This document shows positions 4,827 through 30,706 of a DNA stretch of 32,000 nucleotides, piece by piece. The notes beneath the pieces are model-generated. The model searched no databases, was not told the origin of the DNA, and saw nothing but the letters and a program-made list of their open reading frames with translations. The translations under genes and the position numbers were made by a program. This DNA comes from Lachnospiraceae bacterium (GTDB lineage Bacteria > Bacillota > Clostridia > Lachnospirales > Lachnospiraceae): NCBI GenBank assembly GCA_015057115.1, contig SVEZ01000002.1, positions 203,456 to 235,455 of the forward strand. The letters are read 5' to 3'. The number at the start of each line of letters is the position of its first letter. Positions within the stretch are counted from its first letter, which is position 1.

Positions 4827-5876
4827 CTAATCCGTTATTACCGTAGTAGCTACTGCCACAAACGGATTCTCATTATATCCCTTCATAGACTTTACAAATA
4901 CCTTCTTCAGGCACACTTCTACAACCTCATGCATCAATCCCCGGATAAGCGGATTCTGCTCCGCATACACCATTTTGCCATTTAAGGCACTGTATGACGG
5001 ATCACATTGAAATCGAATTACATAACAACCTTCCGCCTGATCCACATTGGCAACCAGCTGATATCTTGCCAAAATAAATTTACATAAATGCGCCATCAGG
5101 AAAATGAAGAAAAAGATATCCTGTACCTTGGTCTGTGGAATATCCGCCTTTACATTCTTCTGAATAATCAAACTACTCTTGTTAGCTTCATTAAAAAACG
5201 CATCCTCCACTGCCTTCTTTCGTTCGGAAAACTCTTTCTGAGAAAAAACATATCCATTAATGTATTCCCTTACAATCTCCTGAACAAAATATTTCACACG
5301 AATATATTCTTCTTCCTTCAGTCCCTTCTGTTCACCCCAGGTCTTCAAATTGCCATGAACAATACCGCTAAAAACAGCATAAAGATTGGTATAGTCACGT
5401 CCGCGTTTAAAATTCTCACTTCGAAGTTTGTCAAATTCCTCAGCCAGATTCGTAGCTGAACCGTGAATACTTCCAACAAGTCCGTTGGCCAGTTTTCTTC
5501 TTTCATACTCTTTCATTCCACGCTCAATGGGCAAAATCAAATCCTCTGCCAATTTGAATGGTTTTAAAATAATCTCGAAAATATTGGCCTCATTCAGAAT
5601 CTCCAAAATCAGGTTAATATCAATAACCTCTGTCATCAGCACATGAACAAGGTTGGGGTGTGACAACCGATACATATCCGAAAATTCACTGGCATTGATG
5701 ATTCCCATTTCATCCTCGGTAATCACCACAGCAACCTCTTTCTCCGAAATCCATTCCATTGCCTGTTCGGGGAAGCTGGTATACCAGATTGTATATTTCT
5801 GTTCCAACCCATGCAACATATTTTTATATTTCTCCAGGGAGCCTTGATTCGGTTCCAAAATTACCACATCAGCCAT
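4827..5876 (-). CDS. Atypical receiver (REC)-like domain protein with an uncharacterised C-terminal domain of about 220 aa
   Basis: 349 aa. The N-terminus has a REC-like layout (VVILEP..., VVITEDEMG, HVLMTE, ILKPF). The usual N-terminal DD acidic pair is absent (EPNQ instead). A strong AGGAGG ribosome-binding site is present. The gene lies 12 nt upstream of the ABC-F gene. Confidence 0.65.
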   Translation of the reverse strand: MADVVILEPNQGSLEKYKNMLHGLEQKYTIWYTSFPEQAMEWISEKEVAVVITEDEMGIINASEFSDMYRLSHPNLVHVLMTEVIDINLILEILNEANIFEIILKPFKLAEDLILPIERGMKEYERRKLANGLVGSIHGSATNLAEEFDKLRSENFKRGRDYTNLYAVFSGIVHGNLKTWGEQKGLKEEEYIRVKYFVQEIVREYINGYVFSQKEFSERKKAVEDAFFNEANKSSLIIQKNVKADIPQTKVQDIFFFIFLMAHLCKFILARYQLVANVDQAEGCYVIRFQCDPSYSALNGKMVYAEQNPLIRGLMHEVVEVCLKKVFVKSMKGYNENPFVAVATTVITD

Positions 5877-9236: not shown

Positions 9237-9608
9237 TTAAACCTTTTCATCTGCCCCATAGCTCTCGTCACCATCATAAAAGATTTGATAGATTTCAATC
9301 TTCAAGGAATCTGTTTCCGTCATTCCGATAAACATTGCACCGTAAGTAAAGGTTCCGTCCTCATTATCCTTTACTCGAACGATTTCGATTACCGTTTCAA
9401 TAATTTCCTTCGTCCATATCTGAAGCTTCATATCGTAGTAGGAATGGTTCTCCAATACCTGAGAACTACGGAATCCAATACCGGTCTTGGAAAGATCAAA
9501 TACATCCACCTTACCGTATTTTACAGTAGTTGTATCATCAACATCCAACCGTTCGATCTGAACTTGAACATCCAAATCCAGTCGCTTACTTCTTCTTCTT
9601 TCTTCCAT
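9237..9608 (-). CDS. Stand-alone PilZ domain protein (putative c-di-GMP receptor)
   Basis: 123 aa. An RxxxR-type motif at the N-terminus (RRRSKR) and a DxSxxG motif (DLSKTG) are spaced as expected for PilZ. Confidence 0.85.
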   Translation of the reverse strand: MEERRRSKRLDLDVQVQIERLDVDDTTTVKYGKVDVFDLSKTGIGFRSSQVLENHSYYDMKLQIWTKEIIETVIEIVRVKDNEDGTFTYGAMFIGMTETDSLKIEIYQIFYDGDESYGADEKV

Positions 9609-17631: not shown

Positions 17632-19155
17632 TTACACATCCTCTCCACGGTAATCAATCTGTAATTCGAACCAAAATGTACTGCCTTTTCCAATTTCACT
17701 TTCCACACCATATTGGGCACGATGAAGAATCAGAATGTTTTTAACAATGGAAAGTCCGAGACCGGTACCCTGAACCGAGCGTTTATGGTTCTTATCCACC
17801 TTATAATACCGCTCCCAAACATTATCAAGTTCTGTCTTGGGAATTCCTTCTCCGGAATCAATAATCTCAATGCGCACAACATCACCCTTCAGAATCTGTC
17901 GAACCTGAACCAGTTTGTCCGCCCCGGTATAGTTAATGGCATTATTTATCAGGTTATAAACCACCTGATAAATCTTATACTCATCTGCCACCACGTATAC
18001 ATCCTGCTCTGCCTCAAAAGTTATTACATAACCTTCCTGTTCTCGCAGTTTATTATACCGGTCAAACACCTGACGGATACTTTCCGTCAAATTATAGCGA
18101 ATAAGCTTTAATTCCTCTACTCCTCCTTGGAGTTTAGATAAATCCAGCACGTCATTAACCAACGTTGTAAGACGATTCGCTTCATCAATAATAACCTGCA
18201 CATTCTCCGGCGTATTTTCACCCGGGATGTCACGCATTACCTCTGCATACCCGGTAATCATGGTAAGTGGGGTTCTAAGATCATGGGACACATTTGCCAC
18301 AATTTCATGTTGATACTGCTCCGTCTTACCCAACTCCGAAGCTGCAAAATTCAAGGTATCCGATAATTCGTCAAACTCCCGATAATGTTCCGCCCGGAAA
18401 TTCGGTGAAAAGTCTCCTTTTGCCAGCCGTTTCGCCGCCTCATTCATACGAATCAACGGTCGTGCCACCATGTTGGAAATAAAAACAGCAAATATAATTC
18501 CAAGAACCAGAAGTACACCCGTTATTACCAACAGCTGAATCTTAATGGTTTCCACGGTTGAAGTAACGGGTGTTACCGTTATATTTACCAATAGAACCGG
18601 CGAACCATATGCCTCCGGATTAATTATTTTTGTTAAAATAATACTTTCGCCACGTTCCAATCCTTCGTTCTGTCGGAATTTCTTTTCTGAATCCTTTTTT
18701 CCTCCGGGAGCCAGGCTGTCTCCACCAATTCCGGAAGAATCATCTCCCCCCATTTCACTATCATTTCCGATAACGGTATAACTGTACTCACCGTTATGCA
18801 TTCTCGCTTTTTCAAGAAGCTGTCGAAACATTTCGGTCGGCATATATAAAAGCGAGGACACTGGATTATGATCTGACAAATACAAATAGGACAGATTCTC
18901 ATTAGTCAGCATCACCGAATAATTGTGTTCTCCAGCAATATCACTGATTTTCGTTTCCAAATCAGGATCTTCTGCTTCAATCAACTCCGCAAGCTGCTCA
19001 TAAACCTTCTTTGCCTCAACCCGCTTAATATACTTATAAAACTCATTCAGGTATACTACCTGAAAAACCCAAAGTAAAATAATCAATATCGCACAAAAAA
19101 GCAGCATATAGCCACATAGCTGCCATTTTGCACTCAGTTTTCTTTTACGCCTCAA
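17632..19155 (-). CDS. Sensor histidine kinase (2 TM, HAMP, HisKA, HATPase_c)
   Basis: H-box SHDLRTPLT, N-box NLINNAINYT and G-boxes DSGEGI / GTGLGLSI are present. I prefer the TTG start at 19155 (GAGGAG upstream, overlapping the regulator's stop). The ATG at 19212 would overlap the regulator gene by 68 nt. Confidence 0.86.
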   Translation of the reverse strand: MRRKRKLSAKWQLCGYMLLFCAILIILLWVFQVVYLNEFYKYIKRVEAKKVYEQLAELIEAEDPDLETKISDIAGEHNYSVMLTNENLSYLYLSDHNPVSSLLYMPTEMFRQLLEKARMHNGEYSYTVIGNDSEMGGDDSSGIGGDSLAPGGKKDSEKKFRQNEGLERGESIILTKIINPEAYGSPVLLVNITVTPVTSTVETIKIQLLVITGVLLVLGIIFAVFISNMVARPLIRMNEAAKRLAKGDFSPNFRAEHYREFDELSDTLNFAASELGKTEQYQHEIVANVSHDLRTPLTMITGYAEVMRDIPGENTPENVQVIIDEANRLTTLVNDVLDLSKLQGGVEELKLIRYNLTESIRQVFDRYNKLREQEGYVITFEAEQDVYVVADEYKIYQVVYNLINNAINYTGADKLVQVRQILKGDVVRIEIIDSGEGIPKTELDNVWERYYKVDKNHKRSVQGTGLGLSIVKNILILHRAQYGVESEIGKGSTFWFELQIDYRGEDV

Positions 19156-19825
19156 ATTTATACCCCACTCCTCGCAATGTAACCAGATGATTTCGATACT
19201 CACCAAGAGCATTTCTCAAAAGCTTGATGTGCGTATCCAAAGTACGGTCATCACCATAATAATCATATCCCCAGACCTGGGTAATAAGCTGCTCTCTGGA
19301 AAGAGCAATATTTCGATTCTCAACCAGGTAAAACAAAAGGGCATACTCCTTAGGCGAAAGTTCAACACGCTGTCCGTCTACAGAAACCGTTCGTGCCGTA
19401 AAATCAATACTCAACCCTTCAGTAGTAAATACTTTGTGTTCCATCACCGCATCCTGATGTTTCTCATGCCGCTGAATAATAACTTTGGCACGCATCATTA
19501 GCTCCTTGGGAGAAAAGGGTTTTACCACATAATCGTCTATACCTATTTCAAAACCGTGGATTTTATCATATTCTTCACCTCTGGCAGAAAGCATCAGCAC
19601 TGGGATATCCTTCTTTTCCATAATGGATCTGGCAGCGGAAAAGCCGTCCAGTTCCGGCATCATCACATCCATAATGATTAAATCGAAGTCTTCTTTTTCA
19701 CACATTGCAATGGCATCCATACCATTTTCCGCCTCGGAAATAACGTAGCCTTCGAATTCAGCATATTTTTTTATAATTTCGCGAATTTTTCTTTCATCAT
19801 CAACAACTAAAATCCGATTACCCAT
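19145..19825 (-). CDS. OmpR/PhoB-family response regulator
   Basis: The REC domain shows ILVVDDE, IMDVMMPELDG and VVKPF. A winged-helix C-terminus follows (LSPKEYALLFYL...TLDTHIKLLRNAL...TLRGVGYKF). The ATG at 19825 (MGNRILVVDD) is preceded by GGAGG. The upstream ATG at 19861 lacks a ribosome-binding site. Confidence 0.9.
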   Translation of the reverse strand: MGNRILVVDDERKIREIIKKYAEFEGYVISEAENGMDAIAMCEKEDFDLIIMDVMMPELDGFSAARSIMEKKDIPVLMLSARGEEYDKIHGFEIGIDDYVVKPFSPKELMMRAKVIIQRHEKHQDAVMEHKVFTTEGLSIDFTARTVSVDGQRVELSPKEYALLFYLVENRNIALSREQLITQVWGYDYYGDDRTLDTHIKLLRNALGEYRNHLVTLRGVGYKFEA

Positions 19826-19905
19826 ACAACCTCCGTTTTCAATTCTTTTCTCATTTATCATACTTTCGTCAAGTGACAGTCCTGTGACGGCTATCTGATG
19901 GTTCC

Positions 19906-19980: not shown

Positions 19981-20009
19981 TTGAAAATTATCAAAATATG
20001 TTGTAGAAT
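19981..20009 (+). promoter_or_regulatory. Sigma-A type promoter of the cheY-like operon
   Basis: TTGAAA, 17 nt, TAGAAT, about 34 nt before the ATG at 20043. Confidence 0.55.
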
Positions 20010-20042: not shown

Positions 20043-20420
20043 ATGGACATTAAAGATTGTAAAATTTTGATTTGCGATGACTCCATTTTGGCGCGCAAAC
20101 AATTGAAAGACGTACTGACCTCCGCTGGATGTTGTAATTTTTTAGAAGCAAGAGATGGTCAGGCTGCCATTGACATCTACAAAGCAGAAAAGCCAACTCT
20201 GGTCTTTCTGGATATTGTTATGCCAAATGTAGATGGTATTGAAGCTGTAAAACAAATTATGGCTTTCGATAAAGATGCTGTTATCATTATGGTTTCCTCT
20301 GTCGGTACACAGAATCAGATTAAAGCTTCTCTCTTGGAGGGTGCTAAAGATTTTATTCAGAAGCCATTTGTTGCAACTCAAATTACGAATGTACTGAAGA
20401 AAAGAGTGGAGGGAATCTAA
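20043..20420 (+). CDS. Single-domain CheY-like response regulator
   Basis: Shows KILICDDS, FLDIVMPNVDG, MVSS and IQKPF, and has no output domain. The ATG at 20043 has a GAGG ribosome-binding site 7 nt upstream. The track's start at 20028 is a TTG upstream of that site. Confidence 0.9.
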   Translation: MDIKDCKILICDDSILARKQLKDVLTSAGCCNFLEARDGQAAIDIYKAEKPTLVFLDIVMPNVDGIEAVKQIMAFDKDAVIIMVSSVGTQNQIKASLLEGAKDFIQKPFVATQITNVLKKRVEGI

Positions 20421-20423
20421 ACT

Positions 20424-21311
20424 ATGTTTACACAATTATTTGGAAATTTCCTTTTAAGAAAAGGGGTTGTTACCCCGGAACAGCTTTTATCCGTTATTAA
20501 AGCCGCTTCCACTTCTCATGTAAAACTCGGAACCCTCTGTATGCATGCCGGTCTTATGAGCCCTGCTGAGGTTGAGAAGGTTTATGTTATGCAGACACAG
20601 GTGGACAAGCGTTTCGGAGAAATCGCTGTGGATGAAGGTTACCTGACCGCTTCCCAGGTTGAAGAATTAATGGAGAATCAGGGACCGCACTATCTTGTTC
20701 TTGCGCAGGAATTAGCAGAACAAGGCATCTTAAATCACGAAGAAGTTGAGCGTCTTCTTTACGATTACCAAACCGAAACAGAACTTTTTGATTTAGATAT
20801 GATGGAGGATCACAAAGCGAAGTTAAAGAAGTTGGTTTTAAACTTCTGCAATTTCGGCGACATTCGCAATGCGGATACTGCAGTCGCTTACTTGCAACTT
20901 CTGTTTAACAACGTGATTCGTTTCATCGGAGATGATTTTACACCAATGGACTTGGTTCCTTTCCAGGAATACGTTACAAAGGTTGCAACTTCTCAGGCTG
21001 TTTCCGGTGAATTCACCCTTTGCACTGCAGTGGAAATGGACGAGAACACAGCCGTAGCTTTTGCTTCCCGTTATGCAGGCGAAGAATTTAGTGAGTTCAA
21101 CGAGTATTCCATCGCAGCCTTAGAGGATTTCTTAAATTTACATAACGGACTATTCGTAGTGAATATGTCTAACACGTCTTCCATCGAATTGAATTTGGAA
21201 GCGCCAATGGAAATCAGCAATGACCTCTACGCGCCGGAAGGTTCTACCTATCTTTTGCCACTTGCTTATACCTTCGGTACCGTAAACTTTTTAATTACAA
21301 TCTATAACTAA
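20424..21311 (+). CDS. Fusion protein: N-terminal tandem MshEN/T2SSE_N-like 29-residue repeats plus a C-terminal CheX/CheC-like domain
   Basis: 295 aa. The gene starts 3 nt after the cheY-like stop, with GGAGGG upstream. Details of the repeat periodicity and of the N-x22-P spacing of the CheC/CheX motif are given in the findings. Confidence 0.72.
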   Translation: MFTQLFGNFLLRKGVVTPEQLLSVIKAASTSHVKLGTLCMHAGLMSPAEVEKVYVMQTQVDKRFGEIAVDEGYLTASQVEELMENQGPHYLVLAQELAEQGILNHEEVERLLYDYQTETELFDLDMMEDHKAKLKKLVLNFCNFGDIRNADTAVAYLQLLFNNVIRFIGDDFTPMDLVPFQEYVTKVATSQAVSGEFTLCTAVEMDENTAVAFASRYAGEEFSEFNEYSIAALEDFLNLHNGLFVVNMSNTSSIELNLEAPMEISNDLYAPEGSTYLLPLAYTFGTVNFLITIYN

Positions 21312-21325
21312 GGAATGTTTTTTAC

Positions 21326-21359
21326 GGGCTGCATTTCATTGCAGCCCTTATTTATTTTT
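21326..21359 (+). terminator. Rho-independent terminator
   Basis: GGGCTGCA-TTTCAT-TGCAGCCC followed by TTATTTATTTTT. Confidence 0.8.
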
Positions 21360-21374
21360 AAAGGAGACTACTCA

Positions 21375-22193
21375 ATGCTGCCCGGCGTATATACTGAAAC
21401 AAAAAAAGATGGCACACTCTACTACCGTTCCAGTTTTACCTACAAAAACAAACATATCAGTCTTGGAAGCTACAGTTCGGAAGAATTGGCCTTCAAGGCA
21501 TATTTGGATGCCCGCAAATTGATACGGGACGATACATTTCATCTTTACGATGATTTTAGTGGATTTACGTTAGATTTTTCCAGAATCATTAGCATTTTAA
21601 ACTTCCGGGATAACGGACTATACATGAAAACCCCTATCTATGTTCGACAGAACTACTTTTTATACTTTTTGTCTCCATCCCAAGACTTAAAGTTTGATAT
21701 GGATGACCTATTCTATTTCAGCACCCGTACCATTTCCGTTCGCAAAGGTCACTATTTTGTGGCAGACTATGGCATGCAGGTTACATTAACTTCCCGCTAC
21801 GGAATTCGAAACCACGCAGTGAAAGGACGGGATTATCGCTTTGTAAACGGAGACGAAACCGACTTTCGTTCCGCCAATATTTTAGTCATCAACAAGTATT
21901 ACGGTGTCAACCGTTGTATTCATCGTAAAAAGGAAGCCTTTCGCGTTCAAATTCACCTGAAAGGAAATTATGTCATCGGATATTACGAAGAGGAACATCG
22001 GGCTGCCATTGCTTATAACAAGGCTGTAGACGAAGCAAAAAAAGCAGGTATCACGAAGAACTTTCCCATAAACTTTGTGGATGAATGTTCAAACCGACAA
22101 TATGCCCAAATCTATTCCCAGATTACCCTTCCAACCAAATATATGCATGCCCTCGTTCAACATAAAGAATCGAGTGCGCTTACAAAAATGTGA
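21375..22193 (+). CDS. Protein with two AP2/ERF-like DNA-binding domains
   Basis: I prefer the ATG at 21375 (AAAGGAG ribosome-binding site), because the longer track ORF would translate through the terminator hairpin. The N-terminal domain reads LPGVYTE..GTLYYRSSFTYKNKHISLGSYSSEELAFKAYLDA. The C-terminal domain reads YYGVNRC...EAFRVQIHLKGNYVIGYYEEEHRAAIAYNKAV. Both fit the AP2 pattern G(V)Y...Y.a.i..kgk...LG.f.t.eeAa.aYn.A. Confidence 0.72.
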   Translation: MLPGVYTETKKDGTLYYRSSFTYKNKHISLGSYSSEELAFKAYLDARKLIRDDTFHLYDDFSGFTLDFSRIISILNFRDNGLYMKTPIYVRQNYFLYFLSPSQDLKFDMDDLFYFSTRTISVRKGHYFVADYGMQVTLTSRYGIRNHAVKGRDYRFVNGDETDFRSANILVINKYYGVNRCIHRKKEAFRVQIHLKGNYVIGYYEEEHRAAIAYNKAVDEAKKAGITKNFPINFVDECSNRQYAQIYSQITLPTKYMHALVQHKESSALTKM

Positions 22194-26831: not shown

Positions 26832-27809
26832 TTATCGAATTTCTTTGGCAATAACATCCAATATGGGATTAATTTTTTCCAAAGCATTACTCATTTCATT
26901 CATCATACCATCTTTTCGTTCCAGTTTATCCTGCAAATTTCGAACATTATTCGCAACATCATCGAAATAATCCTGTGATCCGCCAATATTCTGAGAAATC
27001 TCCATAATCTCACTATCACAACGATTGATTACCAATCCAATCTGATCGCCTTCATCACGAACATTATCCGCAACCGCACGAATATTATCAATGATGCCTT
27101 CTGTTTCTGTAATATTCTGGTGGGATGTTTCAATAGCTGCCTTCGTATCTTCCAGGGAATCCACCAGTCGGCTGTTGTTATCGTCCAATTCCTGCATACT
27201 ATCGCCAATTTCAGAAACCAAATCTTTAATTTCCTGAGAAAGCTTATTAACTTCCGTAGCAACTACCGCAAATCCTCTTCCGGCCTCTCCTGCACGTGCA
27301 GCCTCAATGGAAGCATTTAAAGCAAGAAGATTGGTCTGGTTTGCAAAATTGTTAATCTGATTTACTTTTTCCTGGATATCATCAAAACTCTTCTGGAACT
27401 CAGCAAACACCTTCTGCATTGTATCAATCGTATCAGAAACAGAATTGGAACTTTCATCTACCTTATGCATACTCGCATTGGAATCATCTGCTGTTTTCAT
27501 TAATTCTTTAATAATATCTTCAAAGTGATCCGTGACTGCGTGAATTGTATTAAACTCCTGCTGAAAGCTACTAATACTCTCTGAAATATTACTGTATTTG
27601 TCTTGTACCAGGCTAAAGGATTGCTGAATAGTATCAATTCCTTCCTTTGTGACCATTTCCTCTTTCTGAAGCTTCTTCTGCTGTTCCACAGCAAAACGAC
27701 CGGCTTCCCTTAACGGAGCAATATGTCTTCCAATATTACCTACGTCCGTCTTCTGTTGCATTGTACCTGCGTTGTTTTCTTCTTGGCCCTTCTTTTTAAA
27801 CATGTCCAT
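26832..27809 (-). CDS. Soluble methyl-accepting chemotaxis protein (signalling domain only, no TM segments)
   Basis: 325 aa. The highly conserved MCP hairpin tip reads [32 protein letters not shown]. There is no hydrophobic segment. A GGAGGA ribosome-binding site is present. Confidence 0.9.
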
Positions 27810-28999: not shown

Positions 29000-30706
29000 T
29001 TAAATCTTGAAGAAATCGATTAGTTCTGCCAAGTGATTTGACAACTTCTTCAGTTCATCCGACATATCGCTCACTTCATAAACTGCATTGGAAATCTGTT
29101 CAACGGAGGCCGCAGTCTCTTGCGAGGAAGCTGCATTCTCTTCACTAATTGCTGAAAGATTTGATACATTATCGTTCAATGAAGCACATAAATTCTTAAC
29201 TTCATCGGAACTGTTCTTAATATCGGTAACCATATTCTTGGTTTGTTCAATATTCTCAACCAATCCTTCAATGGAATCTCTGGACTCGCTACTGGATGCC
29301 TTCTGTCTATCCATAATATCATTCAGCTCCCTAACCATTTCCACCGCTTCTGCTGTTTCAATCTTAAGGTTACCCATAATCTGGTTAATCTTATCTGAAC
29401 TTTGTCTGGACTGATCTGCCAACTGTCTAATTTCTCCTGCAACTACCGCAAATCCCTGGCCAGCCTCACCGGCTCTGGCTGCCTCAATAGAAGCATTTAA
29501 TGATAAAAGATTGGTTTGTTCTGCAATTCCGTTAATATCATCCGCAGCCACCGTAACATCGTTAACCGCATTGGCAACCGCTTCCATTTTTTCTACAATC
29601 ACATCCAGATTTGAGATACTGGATTCAATATCACTAATCAAATGACTAAAGCTATCAATTACACTCTTGGATGCCTTGGTCATTTCAACGGTATTCTCTT
29701 CTGTGCTGTCCACATTCTGATTAACCATTTCCATCTTGGCTAAAATATCAGATACATGATCCGCTGCAGTGGTAACTTCCTGTGCCTGAGATGTTGCACC
29801 GTCTGCAATTCCGGTCACCGCATTGGAAAGATCACCCATGGTATCCGAGGTTGTAGTTGCCGTCTTTGTGAGTCCATCGGCATCCTTTAACAACATATCG
29901 ATGTTATCCCGTATACCAACAATGGCTTCTCCCACCTTTAACTTAACGGTATTTACACCCCTTGCCATTTCTCCGAGTTCATCTTTACGCTTGGTTCCCA
30001 TGGATACTTCTTCTCTGGAGAAATTTCCATCCGCAAGATCCAAACAAACTCTCTGAGATGCAATAATAACTCGTGCCAGTCTTGATGAAAAAATAATAGC
30101 AAATACGATAACCAATGCCATAATACCAATACCAATAGCAATAATACTGATTATCGTGGTTCGAATCTGGCTTTCCATGGTGGACTGATTCATACCGGTA
30201 AACACAGCTCCGATTACTTCATCCGTCTTGGGCTGATACAATGGAACGTAACAAACAACACATTTCTTTCCACCGACTACAACACCTGTCGCCAAATGTT
30301 CTTCTCCACCCATTACCTTACTTGCTATCCCCGGATCAATCTGTGTACCCACAGCTCTTTCACCGTTGTTCTTCACAGAGGTAAGCATTCGCGTATCATT
30401 AATAATGATGGTCGAGTACATCTGTGTCTGTTCATATAGCTCATCCAAAACAGTATTAACATAGCTAAGATCTGTCGGTCCCAACCATAGCGCATCTCCC
30501 TCTACATGATAGGTACCGTCATCAATTTCCTGCAGAATATTTCTTACGGAACATGCTGCCGTACGTAACGATGTTTTGTAGGATGATGTCATGGCATTGT
30601 CCATTCTAATTGCAGTTGCAACGCCAAACACTATGGTAATGATCAATGTCGGCAGGATAGCCAATAACATCAGCTTACCCTTTAGTCCGAATTTCTTCAT
30701 TTTCAT
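29000..30706 (-). CDS. Transmembrane methyl-accepting chemotaxis protein with an extracytoplasmic Cache-type sensor and HAMP
   Basis: 568 aa. It has two TM segments flanking a sensor of about 150 aa, then a HAMP domain. The MCP tip reads [32 protein letters not shown]. Confidence 0.92.

Follow-up and report, generated by a model that had tools for sequence, protein, structure and literature searches.

Introduction

The way in which cyclic dimeric guanosine monophosphate (c-di-GMP) influences chemotaxis is currently under active study, and according to two papers from 2026, PilZ proteins and CheX of Vibrio belong to a common pathway (PMC12799141, PMC12887009). In this work, we have analyzed a stretch of 32,000 nucleotides from a Lachnospiraceae bacterium (assembly GCA_015057115.1, contig SVEZ01000002.1), which is referred to as the window throughout. 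It contains a unit of two genes on the + strand: a cheY-like receiver gene (20043..20420) and a gene for a fusion protein of 295 amino acids with the architecture (MshEN_N)2-CheX (20424..21311). These two genes probably provide a direct connection between chemotaxis signalling and c-di-GMP, the messenger for the choice between settling and swimming.

The domain architecture as such is not new, and its novelty is limited: It was catalogued in 2016 by Wang et al. (PMC5013675), who reported MshEN fused to the "phosphatase CheX" and listed (MshEN_N)2-CheX proteins of Deltaproteobacteria and Firmicutes in their Supplementary Table 4. The architecture is not among the proteins of their binding assays in Supplementary Table 6 (PMC5013675). 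An earlier sequence-only reading of the window had stated that no characterized MshEN-CheX fusion was known to it. With respect to the architecture this statement has to be corrected, but it stands with respect to function, as no functional study was found in full-text searches.

Several described systems share parts of this design. Glov_2742 of Geobacter lovleyi (PMC5013675, Supplementary Table 4 and Fig. 3c) has the same domain order, and its four N-terminal units are colinear with those of the window protein over residues 1-115, without insertions or deletions (indels). A Geobacter-type scaffold also has a stand-alone receiver gene upstream of the fusion gene, as in the window. The Geobacter-type proteins have the textbook D-x3-E-x2-N motif in the active site, a shorter linker and a Gln at position 24 of unit 1, whereas the window protein carries Asp in place of the Glu. 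The CheX phosphatases of Thermotoga maritima (1xko, 1squ), Borrelia burgdorferi (3hzh) and Vibrio vulnificus (6vpw) have the same fold as the C-terminal domain over about 150 residues. Their active-site Asn and the acidic residue three positions before it are kept in the window protein, and their substrates belong to the CheY class. However, the sequence identity is as low as 11-17%, the Pfam score for CheX stays below the threshold, and the Glu is again an Asp. Moreover, the window protein has a predicted N-terminal sensor extension of 148 residues that the stand-alone CheX proteins do not have.

On the side of the sensor, the receptors MshE, PilF-GSPII and PilB (5htl, 8pdk) contain the same two RLGxxhhxxGhhxxxxLxxxLxxQ motifs at a distance of five residues, and their four-helix bundle can be superimposed on the model of the window protein. 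In contrast to these receptors, the window protein is devoid of MshEN_C, it has four consecutive hairpins rather than two, and its output domain is CheX instead of an ATPase for secretion or pili. An MshEN_N domain is likewise present inside a chemotaxis protein in Aeromonas veronii: There it is inserted into CheA and binds the nucleotide with a dissociation constant (KD) of 2.6 µM (Wang et al. 2016), and this is the only chemotaxis-linked MshEN_N for which binding of c-di-GMP was demonstrated (PMC5013675). This CheA differs from the window protein in its target, a kinase, in having a single MshEN_N, and in its hosts, which are Proteobacteria and Actinobacteria. Finally, the PlzC-CheX and PlzD/CheX systems of Vibrio (PMC12799141, PMC12887009) combine a c-di-GMP receptor and CheX in one pathway that sets the level of phosphorylated CheY (CheY-P) and swimming reversals. 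In these systems, a PilZ protein that is separate from CheX serves as the receptor in trans, and the effect of PlzC on motility is independent of c-di-GMP binding. In the window, by contrast, a predicted sensor and a predicted phosphatase are part of one polypeptide, with a dedicated CheY alongside.

Beyond the entry of 2016, our analysis shows that the fusion is obligately paired with a CheY-class receiver in several lineages and that the two genes are organized as a free-standing operon. It also describes a subclade with a Glu-to-Asp exchange, the pattern of the hairpin array, and the size of the family as well as its reach into the Bacilli.

The fusion gene is strictly paired with a receiver gene

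The receiver gene encodes 125 amino acids counted from its ATG, which has a GAGG 7 nucleotides upstream, and it ends with a TAA at 20418-20420. The gap between the two genes is exactly 3 nucleotides (ACT between the TAA of cheY and the ATG of the fusion gene), and the ribosome-binding site of the fusion gene, GGAGG, is located within the 3' end of cheY. The coordinates thus agree with the distance given in the sequence-only reading, which had also raised the question whether this gene pair is conserved. This is indeed the case: In 82 of 82 Lachnospiraceae loci, a receiver gene directly precedes the fusion gene in the same orientation, with fusion proteins that are 44-88% identical to the one of the window. 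In the Bacilli, receiver and fusion genes overlap by 8 nucleotides in all three loci (3/3), and one locus on a Geobacter-type metagenomic scaffold has the receiver gene upstream of the fusion gene in the same order. The pairing is therefore strict across two classes of Bacillota and this Geobacter-type locus.

The two genes form a free-standing bicistron, and the genes around it vary by lineage in the five loci for which the neighbours were listed. The family comprises 291 clusters at 50% identity (E <= 1e-30) and extends into the Bacilli, and many of its members carry the label 'chemotaxis protein CheX' of the Prokaryotic Genome Annotation Pipeline (PGAP). A further (MshEN_N)2-CheX gene of the Geobacter type, located directly 3' of a transposase-like open reading frame (ORF) fragment, is cut short at 196 amino acids (L085, 486-1076; L086, 191-781). 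This copy is probably disrupted, and because of the truncation beside the transposase-like fragment the two loci are uninformative with respect to the pairing.

The receiver itself matches Pfam Response_reg with 89.3 bits (2.5e-25). When sequences of the Protein Data Bank (PDB) are ranked by their similarity to it, the top nine are all CheY or CheY3 proteins with 78-90 bits (89 for T. maritima CheY, 78 for B. burgdorferi CheY3), and the next receiver class, represented by Spo0F at 58 bits, follows after a gap of 30 bits. CheY of T. maritima and CheY3 of B. burgdorferi are known substrates of CheX. Among 81 unique partner sequences, there is no variation at D12, D13, D57, S85, F104 and K107. 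Judged from these sequence features, the upstream gene is one for a CheY-class receiver with an intact phospho-acceptor site. As the protein falls below the cut-offs of the CheY equivalog models of NCBIfam (NF041367 CheY_Halo, 86.8 versus 200 bits; PRK10610, 53.1 versus 189 bits), it is best named 'CheY-like'.

The N-terminal region consists of four MshEN-type units

Each MshEN motif of 24 residues binds one half of c-di-GMP (Wang et al. 2016, PMC5013675). In MshE, the Arg at position 1 stacks on the guanine, Leu-Gly at positions 2 and 3 and the hydrophobic residues at positions 17 and 21 form the pocket, and the Gln at position 24 binds ribose/phosphate (PMC5013675). Residues 5-115 of the fusion protein are made up of four 24-residue units that are separated by spacers of five residues (residues 29-33, 58-62 and 87-91), corresponding to a period of 29 residues. 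The Gly of motif position 10 is present in all four units (G14, G43, G72 and G101), and the Gly of position 3 in units 1-3 (G7, G36 and G65), with A94 at this position of unit 4.

Units 2 and 3, which read KLGTLCMHAGLMSPAEVEKVYVMQ / TQVDK / RFGEIAVDEGYLTASQVEELMENQ, correspond to canonical MshEN motifs. Unit 2 covers residues 34-57 (20523..20594, + strand) with K34-L-G36 ... G43 ... V50 ... Q57, and unit 3 covers residues 63-86 (20610..20681, +) with R63-F-G65 ... G72 ... V79 ... Q86. All classes of ligand contacts are present in this pair of units (K34/L35/G36/G43/V50/Y54/Q57 and R63/F64/G65/G72/V79/M83/Q86), and they are conserved to 76-100% among 187 unique close homologs of the fusion protein, the set to which all figures for close homologs refer. 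In unit 2, K34 is found in 97% and both G36 and Q57 in 100% of these proteins; in unit 3, position 63 is Arg or Lys in 76%, and F64, G65 and Q86 are each present in 100%. The two outer units are degenerate. Unit 1 (residues 5-28; 20436..20507, +) has Leu or Phe rather than Arg at position 1 and a variable position 24, which is Ala in the window protein; F6, G7 and L21 are invariant in the close homologs. Unit 4 (residues 92-115; 20697..20768, +) has Val or Leu at position 1, a Gly at position 3 in 85% of the close homologs (Ala in the window protein), and an invariant Tyr at position 24. Both outer units keep positions 2, 3, 17 and 21, and both are devoid of the basic residue at position 1 and of Gln 24. 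The array thus follows the pattern degenerate-canonical-canonical-degenerate, and there are zero indels in residues 1-120 among the close homologs.

For the wider family, we used 128 full-length representatives obtained by clustering at 50% identity. The six key polar or Gly positions of units 2 and 3 are all kept in 94 of the 128 representatives, and at least five of them in 115. A group of 11 representatives has lost the Lys, Gly and Gln residues of units 2 and 3 and keeps the D/E-x2-N motif of CheX (P0149, P0158, P0159, P0182, P0190, P0196 and others); from their sequences, these proteins look like natural 'ligand-blind' variants.

The similarity to MshEN is also detected in profile and structure comparisons. 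The NCBIfam model NF053729 for the MshE-related c-di-GMP motif matches with 64.9 bits at a curated cut-off of 38 bits, and this score, together with the lack of indels in the 187 homologs, indicates that the repeat pattern is not due to chance. A profile built from 30 homologs and compared to PDB sequences detects PilF of Thermus (E 3.2e-7) and MshE of Vibrio cholerae (5htl, E 3.7e-4), and in this search residues 32-87, i. e. units 2 and 3, are aligned to residues 7-62 of MshE. The AlphaFold2 (AF2) model of residues 1-125 contains eight helices, with a predicted local distance difference test (pLDDT) score of 84. In Foldseek, the best matches consist entirely of MshE or PilF-GSPII structures with bound c-di-GMP, and the closest one, 5htl_A, superimposes over 56 columns with a root-mean-square deviation of 0.9 Å and a probability of 0.99. 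The alpha/beta subdomain MshEN_C is absent: In the AF2 model, residues 116-148 (20769..20867, +) form a linker that includes a low-confidence segment (residues 120-133) and a predicted helix (residues 128-141). The fusion is an MshEN_N-only protein, and Wang et al. (2016, PMC5013675) have also classed the architecture in this way. Matches of the helical repeats to the Pfam families FumaraseC_C and DUF4388 are weak and below the cut-off, and they were disregarded.

What the sequence-only reading had described for this region has stood up well. The four units of 29 residues with their Gly positions are found in the translation, and units 2 and 3 fit the c-di-GMP consensus of MshEN with a spacer of five residues, in agreement with the score of NF053729. 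The proposed likeness to MshEN has been recovered by the curated hidden Markov model (HMM), by the profile matches to PilF and MshE and by the AF2/Foldseek match. That units 1 and 4 are degenerate, and units 2 and 3 the best ones, can now be expressed in numbers, both by the conservation among the homologs and by the comparison to V. cholerae MshE: The pair of units 2 and 3 gives the best ungapped match to residues 9-61 of this protein (71 versus 49 and 60).

From these sequence data, we infer that units 2 and 3 form the canonical c-di-GMP site. With respect to the pairing of the hairpins, Wang et al. (2016, PMC5013675) divided the colinear protein of Geobacter into (1+2)(3+4), and the best stretch in the match to NF053729, residues 6-53, fits this parsing. 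Against this parsing, the basic/Gln pair is present in units 2 and 3 only, and these two units, which in combination match V. cholerae MshE best, are the most alike by far, with a BLOSUM sum of 37 versus 13-23 for the other pairs of units; there is no simple pattern of duplication. The identity of 25% over 56 columns in the Foldseek alignment is compatible with both registers, residues 32-87 and 61-116 (counted by hand), and the dips in pLDDT disagree between the AF2 models of the full-length protein and of residues 1-125.

The C-terminal domain is predicted to adopt the CheX fold

Residues ~149-295 (20868..21308, +) form a CheX-fold domain in the AF2 model, with pLDDT values of 80-95. The top 13 Foldseek matches are all CheX or CheX-like proteins, with E values from 4e-10 to 9e-8 and template modelling (TM) scores of 0.69-0.82 over whole CheX chains; they include CheX of T. 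maritima and the CheX-CheY3 complex of B. burgdorferi (3hzh_B), and for CheX structures, with this complex among them, the E values are 4e-10 to 2e-8. CheC, FliY and FliM give far weaker matches than CheX. At the level of the sequence, the profile of the 30 homologs matches B. burgdorferi CheX with an E value of 0.0062, and a precomputed match to PF13690 is carried by some family members. The CheX-like domain proposed in the sequence-only reading is thus supported by the modelled fold, and weakly at the sequence level. The computational outcome by which that reading would have been refuted, a lack of significant HMM or structural similarity to MshEN or CheX, did not occur.

The active-site string of the window protein is A231-x3-D235-x2-N238-x22-P261 (21114..21206, +), with E234 beside D235. 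If the CheX consensus D/S-x3-E-x2-N-x21/22-P is applied, the Asn and the Pro are present and the Glu is replaced by Asp; accordingly, the HMMER alignment to 3hzh_B places D235 on the Glu and N238 on the Asn of CheX. D235 and N238 are present in 100% of the close homologs, and Glu234 precedes the Asp in 86%. In the wider family, the acidic position is occupied by Glu in 96 of the 128 representatives and by Asp in 29, the Asn is kept in 124, and a Pro is found at N+22 in 99. A Pro at this position corresponds to the consensus in its X21-P form, as cited in PMC12887009. The sequence-only reading had correctly recognized the N-x22-P spacing and the D-x2-N with the Glu one residue out of register (E234-D235-F-L-N238, P261). 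The deviation that it noted is real in the window; however, it turned out to be a feature of a subclade rather than of the whole family. In CheX, it is the Asn that places the water for hydrolysis, and the Glu serves mainly as a contact to CheY (PMC12887009), and by analogy the Asp variant may well be active.

Proposed function and alternatives

We think that the fusion protein is best explained as a protein that dephosphorylates or binds its partner CheY under the control of c-di-GMP, and we hold this view with moderate confidence. The phosphorylatable CheY-class receiver and its dedicated partner would then form a self-contained two-gene signalling module. The CheX-fold domain would dock on the phosphorylated receiver and would most likely speed up its dephosphorylation, with the attacking water placed by the conserved Asn238 and a contact to CheY provided by the acidic residue 235. 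The four MshEN_N-type hairpins would bind c-di-GMP, with units 2 and 3 as the canonical site, and the array may switch, via the short linker, the access of CheX to CheY-P or its activity on it. In this way, the cellular level of c-di-GMP would set the lifetime of one pool of CheY-P, and the messenger that governs the motile and sessile states would be coupled to the chemotaxis output or to a phosphate sink for CheA, which is presumably the phosphodonor. If this is true, a more direct wiring could hardly be imagined, with the sensor and the CheY-P phosphatase joined in a single chain and the gene for the substrate CheY next to it. The family is abundant in motile Lachnospiraceae of gut and rumen (Roseburia, Agathobacter) and in soil Bacilli. 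To our knowledge, few c-di-GMP effectors acting on motility have been described in Lachnospiraceae and Bacilli of these habitats.

Several observations weigh against this explanation, and some of them would fit other functions. In the C-terminal domain, the Pfam model for CheX (PF13690) remains below its gathering score (16.5 bits versus 27, E 0.0088), and the exchange of Glu for Asp is fixed in the Lachnospiraceae subclade of the window (100% of the 187 close homologs). Both findings would suit a non-catalytic adaptor, in which the CheX-like domain of the Asp subclade would have lost its phosphatase activity and would only bind phospho-CheY or, given its FliM/FliY-like fold, a component of the flagellar switch, so that the protein would be a scaffold or motor brake that depends on c-di-GMP and CheY-P. 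The CheX fold is indeed common to CheC, FliY and FliM, and PlzC of V. cholerae is a c-di-GMP receptor that acts on CheX by protein contact, without catalysis of its own (PMC12799141). However, the water-positioning Asn238 is invariant, and so are N241 and G242. Moreover, Asp is a conservative change with Glu234 only one residue away on the same helix, the full E-x2-N motif in 96 of the 128 representatives suggests that a canonical active site is the ancestral state, and the structural match to CheX is much better than that to FliM or FliY (TM 0.77-0.82 versus 0.31-0.51). An adaptor of this kind seems rather unlikely to us. In the N-terminal region, Pfam T2SSE_N (PF05157) does not match the fusion protein at E values up to 10, which can be attributed to the absence of the MshEN_C subdomain; of the profile searches that the sequence-only reading had suggested, the one with NF053729 was thus positive, whereas T2SSE_N gave no match and Pfam CheX a sub-threshold one. 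The Foldseek E value for the small N-terminal query is about 1. Units 1 and 4 do not have the Arg/Gln pair, and since the pairing of the hairpins is ambiguous as well, the number and geometry of the ligand sites are uncertain. Moreover, c-di-GMP is not bound by some MshEN-like domains, such as those of XpsE and of PilB_3 from Deinococcus geothermalis, and the GSPII-A type of PilF is another non-binder. The repeats may thus be MshEN-like in their fold and, rather than binding c-di-GMP, serve protein contacts or dimerization, similar to the N-domains of XpsE/GspE or the PilZ-binding N-terminus of PilB, and the protein would simply be an extended CheX. The degenerate outer units, the 11 representatives that keep the CheX motif in spite of the loss of the key residues, and the complexes of the PilB N-terminus with PilZ among the weaker structural matches would be in line with this idea. 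We consider it unlikely: Units 2 and 3 keep every residue class that mattered in the work of Wang et al., nearly invariant and with the exact spacer of five residues, the substitutions of XpsE (G11V, R38G, G40L, Q61V and others) are absent, and the binding-motif model NF053729 is passed with a wide margin.

The connection to flagellar chemotaxis deserves a separate consideration. There are no che or fla genes beside the bicistron in the five loci with listed neighbours, so that the link is based on taxonomy and on the assignment of the receiver to the CheY class; this, too, weighs against the explanation that we favour. The pair might act outside of chemotaxis, as a generic receiver with an auxiliary phosphatase that is fed by another histidine kinase, and the lineage-specific neighbours, the failure of the receiver to reach the CheY equivalog cut-offs, and the divergent genes for an OmpR-type regulator and a histidine kinase that adjoin the bicistron in the window would agree with such a function. 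It is, however, quite improbable in our opinion. Named hosts belong to flagellated genera, such as Roseburia, Agathobacter, Lachnospira, Cytobacillus and Lysinibacillus, which counts against this alternative. In addition, the closest solved relatives of the receiver are all chemotaxis CheYs, with the gap of 30 bits to the next class, the adjoining kinase and regulator genes do not accompany the bicistron in other genomes, two genes for methyl-accepting chemotaxis proteins (MCPs) are present in the window, and every characterized CheX acts on CheY (PMC12799141, PMC12887009). With regard to the explanation that we favour, it should be added that full-text literature searches yielded no later characterization and no binding or activity data for (MshEN_N)2-CheX, which is a further point on the negative side.

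Beyond a c-di-GMP-regulated phosphatase or binder of CheY, it is tempting to speculate about a more specific and, as we see it, rather doubtful possibility: The unit might work on its own as a phosphate sink that is tuned by c-di-GMP and resets chemotaxis signalling in flagellated Bacillota and in the lineage of the Geobacter type, with the central site of units 2 and 3 capped by hairpins 1 and 4, which would relay the binding of the ligand to the CheX active site. This would be a new arrangement, and not two ordinary MshEN_N domains. If true, such a capped phosphate sink would be the first example of a CheY-P phosphatase that is controlled directly by a second messenger sensed in the same polypeptide.

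Flanking signals and other genes in the window

A promoter-like site, TTGAAA-17-TAGAAT, was found 5' of cheY in a scan for the consensus (19981..20009, +). The number of promoter-like sites in the region is not above that in shuffled sequences, and this site is therefore a candidate only. On the 3' side of the fusion gene, the bicistron is ended by a terminator-like hairpin, GGGCTGCA...TGCAGCCC, that is followed by a T-rich tail and resembles an intrinsic terminator (21326..21357, hairpin at 21326-21347, +).

Downstream of this hairpin, an ORF listed from 21315 encodes a protein of 272 amino acids from 21375 to 22193 on the + strand (ORF3). The idea that the operon continues with ORF3 was rejected: The terminator hairpin lies in between, the homology starts only at about residue 21, corresponding to an ATG at 21375 with its own ribosome-binding site, other genes intervene in most genomes, and the gene is absent beside the bicistrons of the Bacilli. 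It is thus a separate gene, and its proximity to the bicistron is confined to the Lachnospiraceae, where a homolog adjoins the bicistron in 12 loci and follows 2-5 kb downstream of it in 57 loci; 7 Lachnospiraceae loci with room for the gene do not contain it, and neither do the Bacilli loci. No Pfam or NCBIfam family matches ORF3. It has a weak similarity, in two stretches, to plant WRI1 and its double AP2 domain (7wq5, E 0.0035), and might therefore be a DNA-binding protein of bacteria with tandem AP2-like domains.

On the other side and divergent from the bicistron, the genes for the OmpR-type response regulator and the histidine kinase with a HAMP domain are located at 17632-19861 on the - strand; their ORFs overlap by 68 nucleotides as listed. 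The kinase was rejected as the cognate kinase of the receiver, given the lack of conservation of these genes beside the bicistron.

A single-domain PilZ protein of 123 amino acids (9237-9608, -) with the canonical motifs RxxxR (RRSKR) and DxSxxG (DLSKTG) is a second predicted c-di-GMP receptor encoded within these 32 kb. The two MCP genes are located at 26832-27809 and 29000-30706, both on the - strand; one of the proteins is short and apparently soluble, and the other one has an sCache_3 and a HAMP domain. The presence of the PilZ protein and of the MCP genes indicates that the organism has c-di-GMP signalling and chemoreceptors. A protein of 349 amino acids (4827-5876, -) has a weak N-terminal receiver match below the cut-off (Pfam, 25.6 bits) and a partial match to the NosR-family model 'response regulator c-di-GMP phosphodiesterase' (42 bits versus a cut-off of 400); its C-terminal ~210 residues carry no domain assignment. 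Finally, the window contains a gene for a MazF/PemK-type toxin at 1137-1490 on the - strand (Pfam, 124.8 bits).

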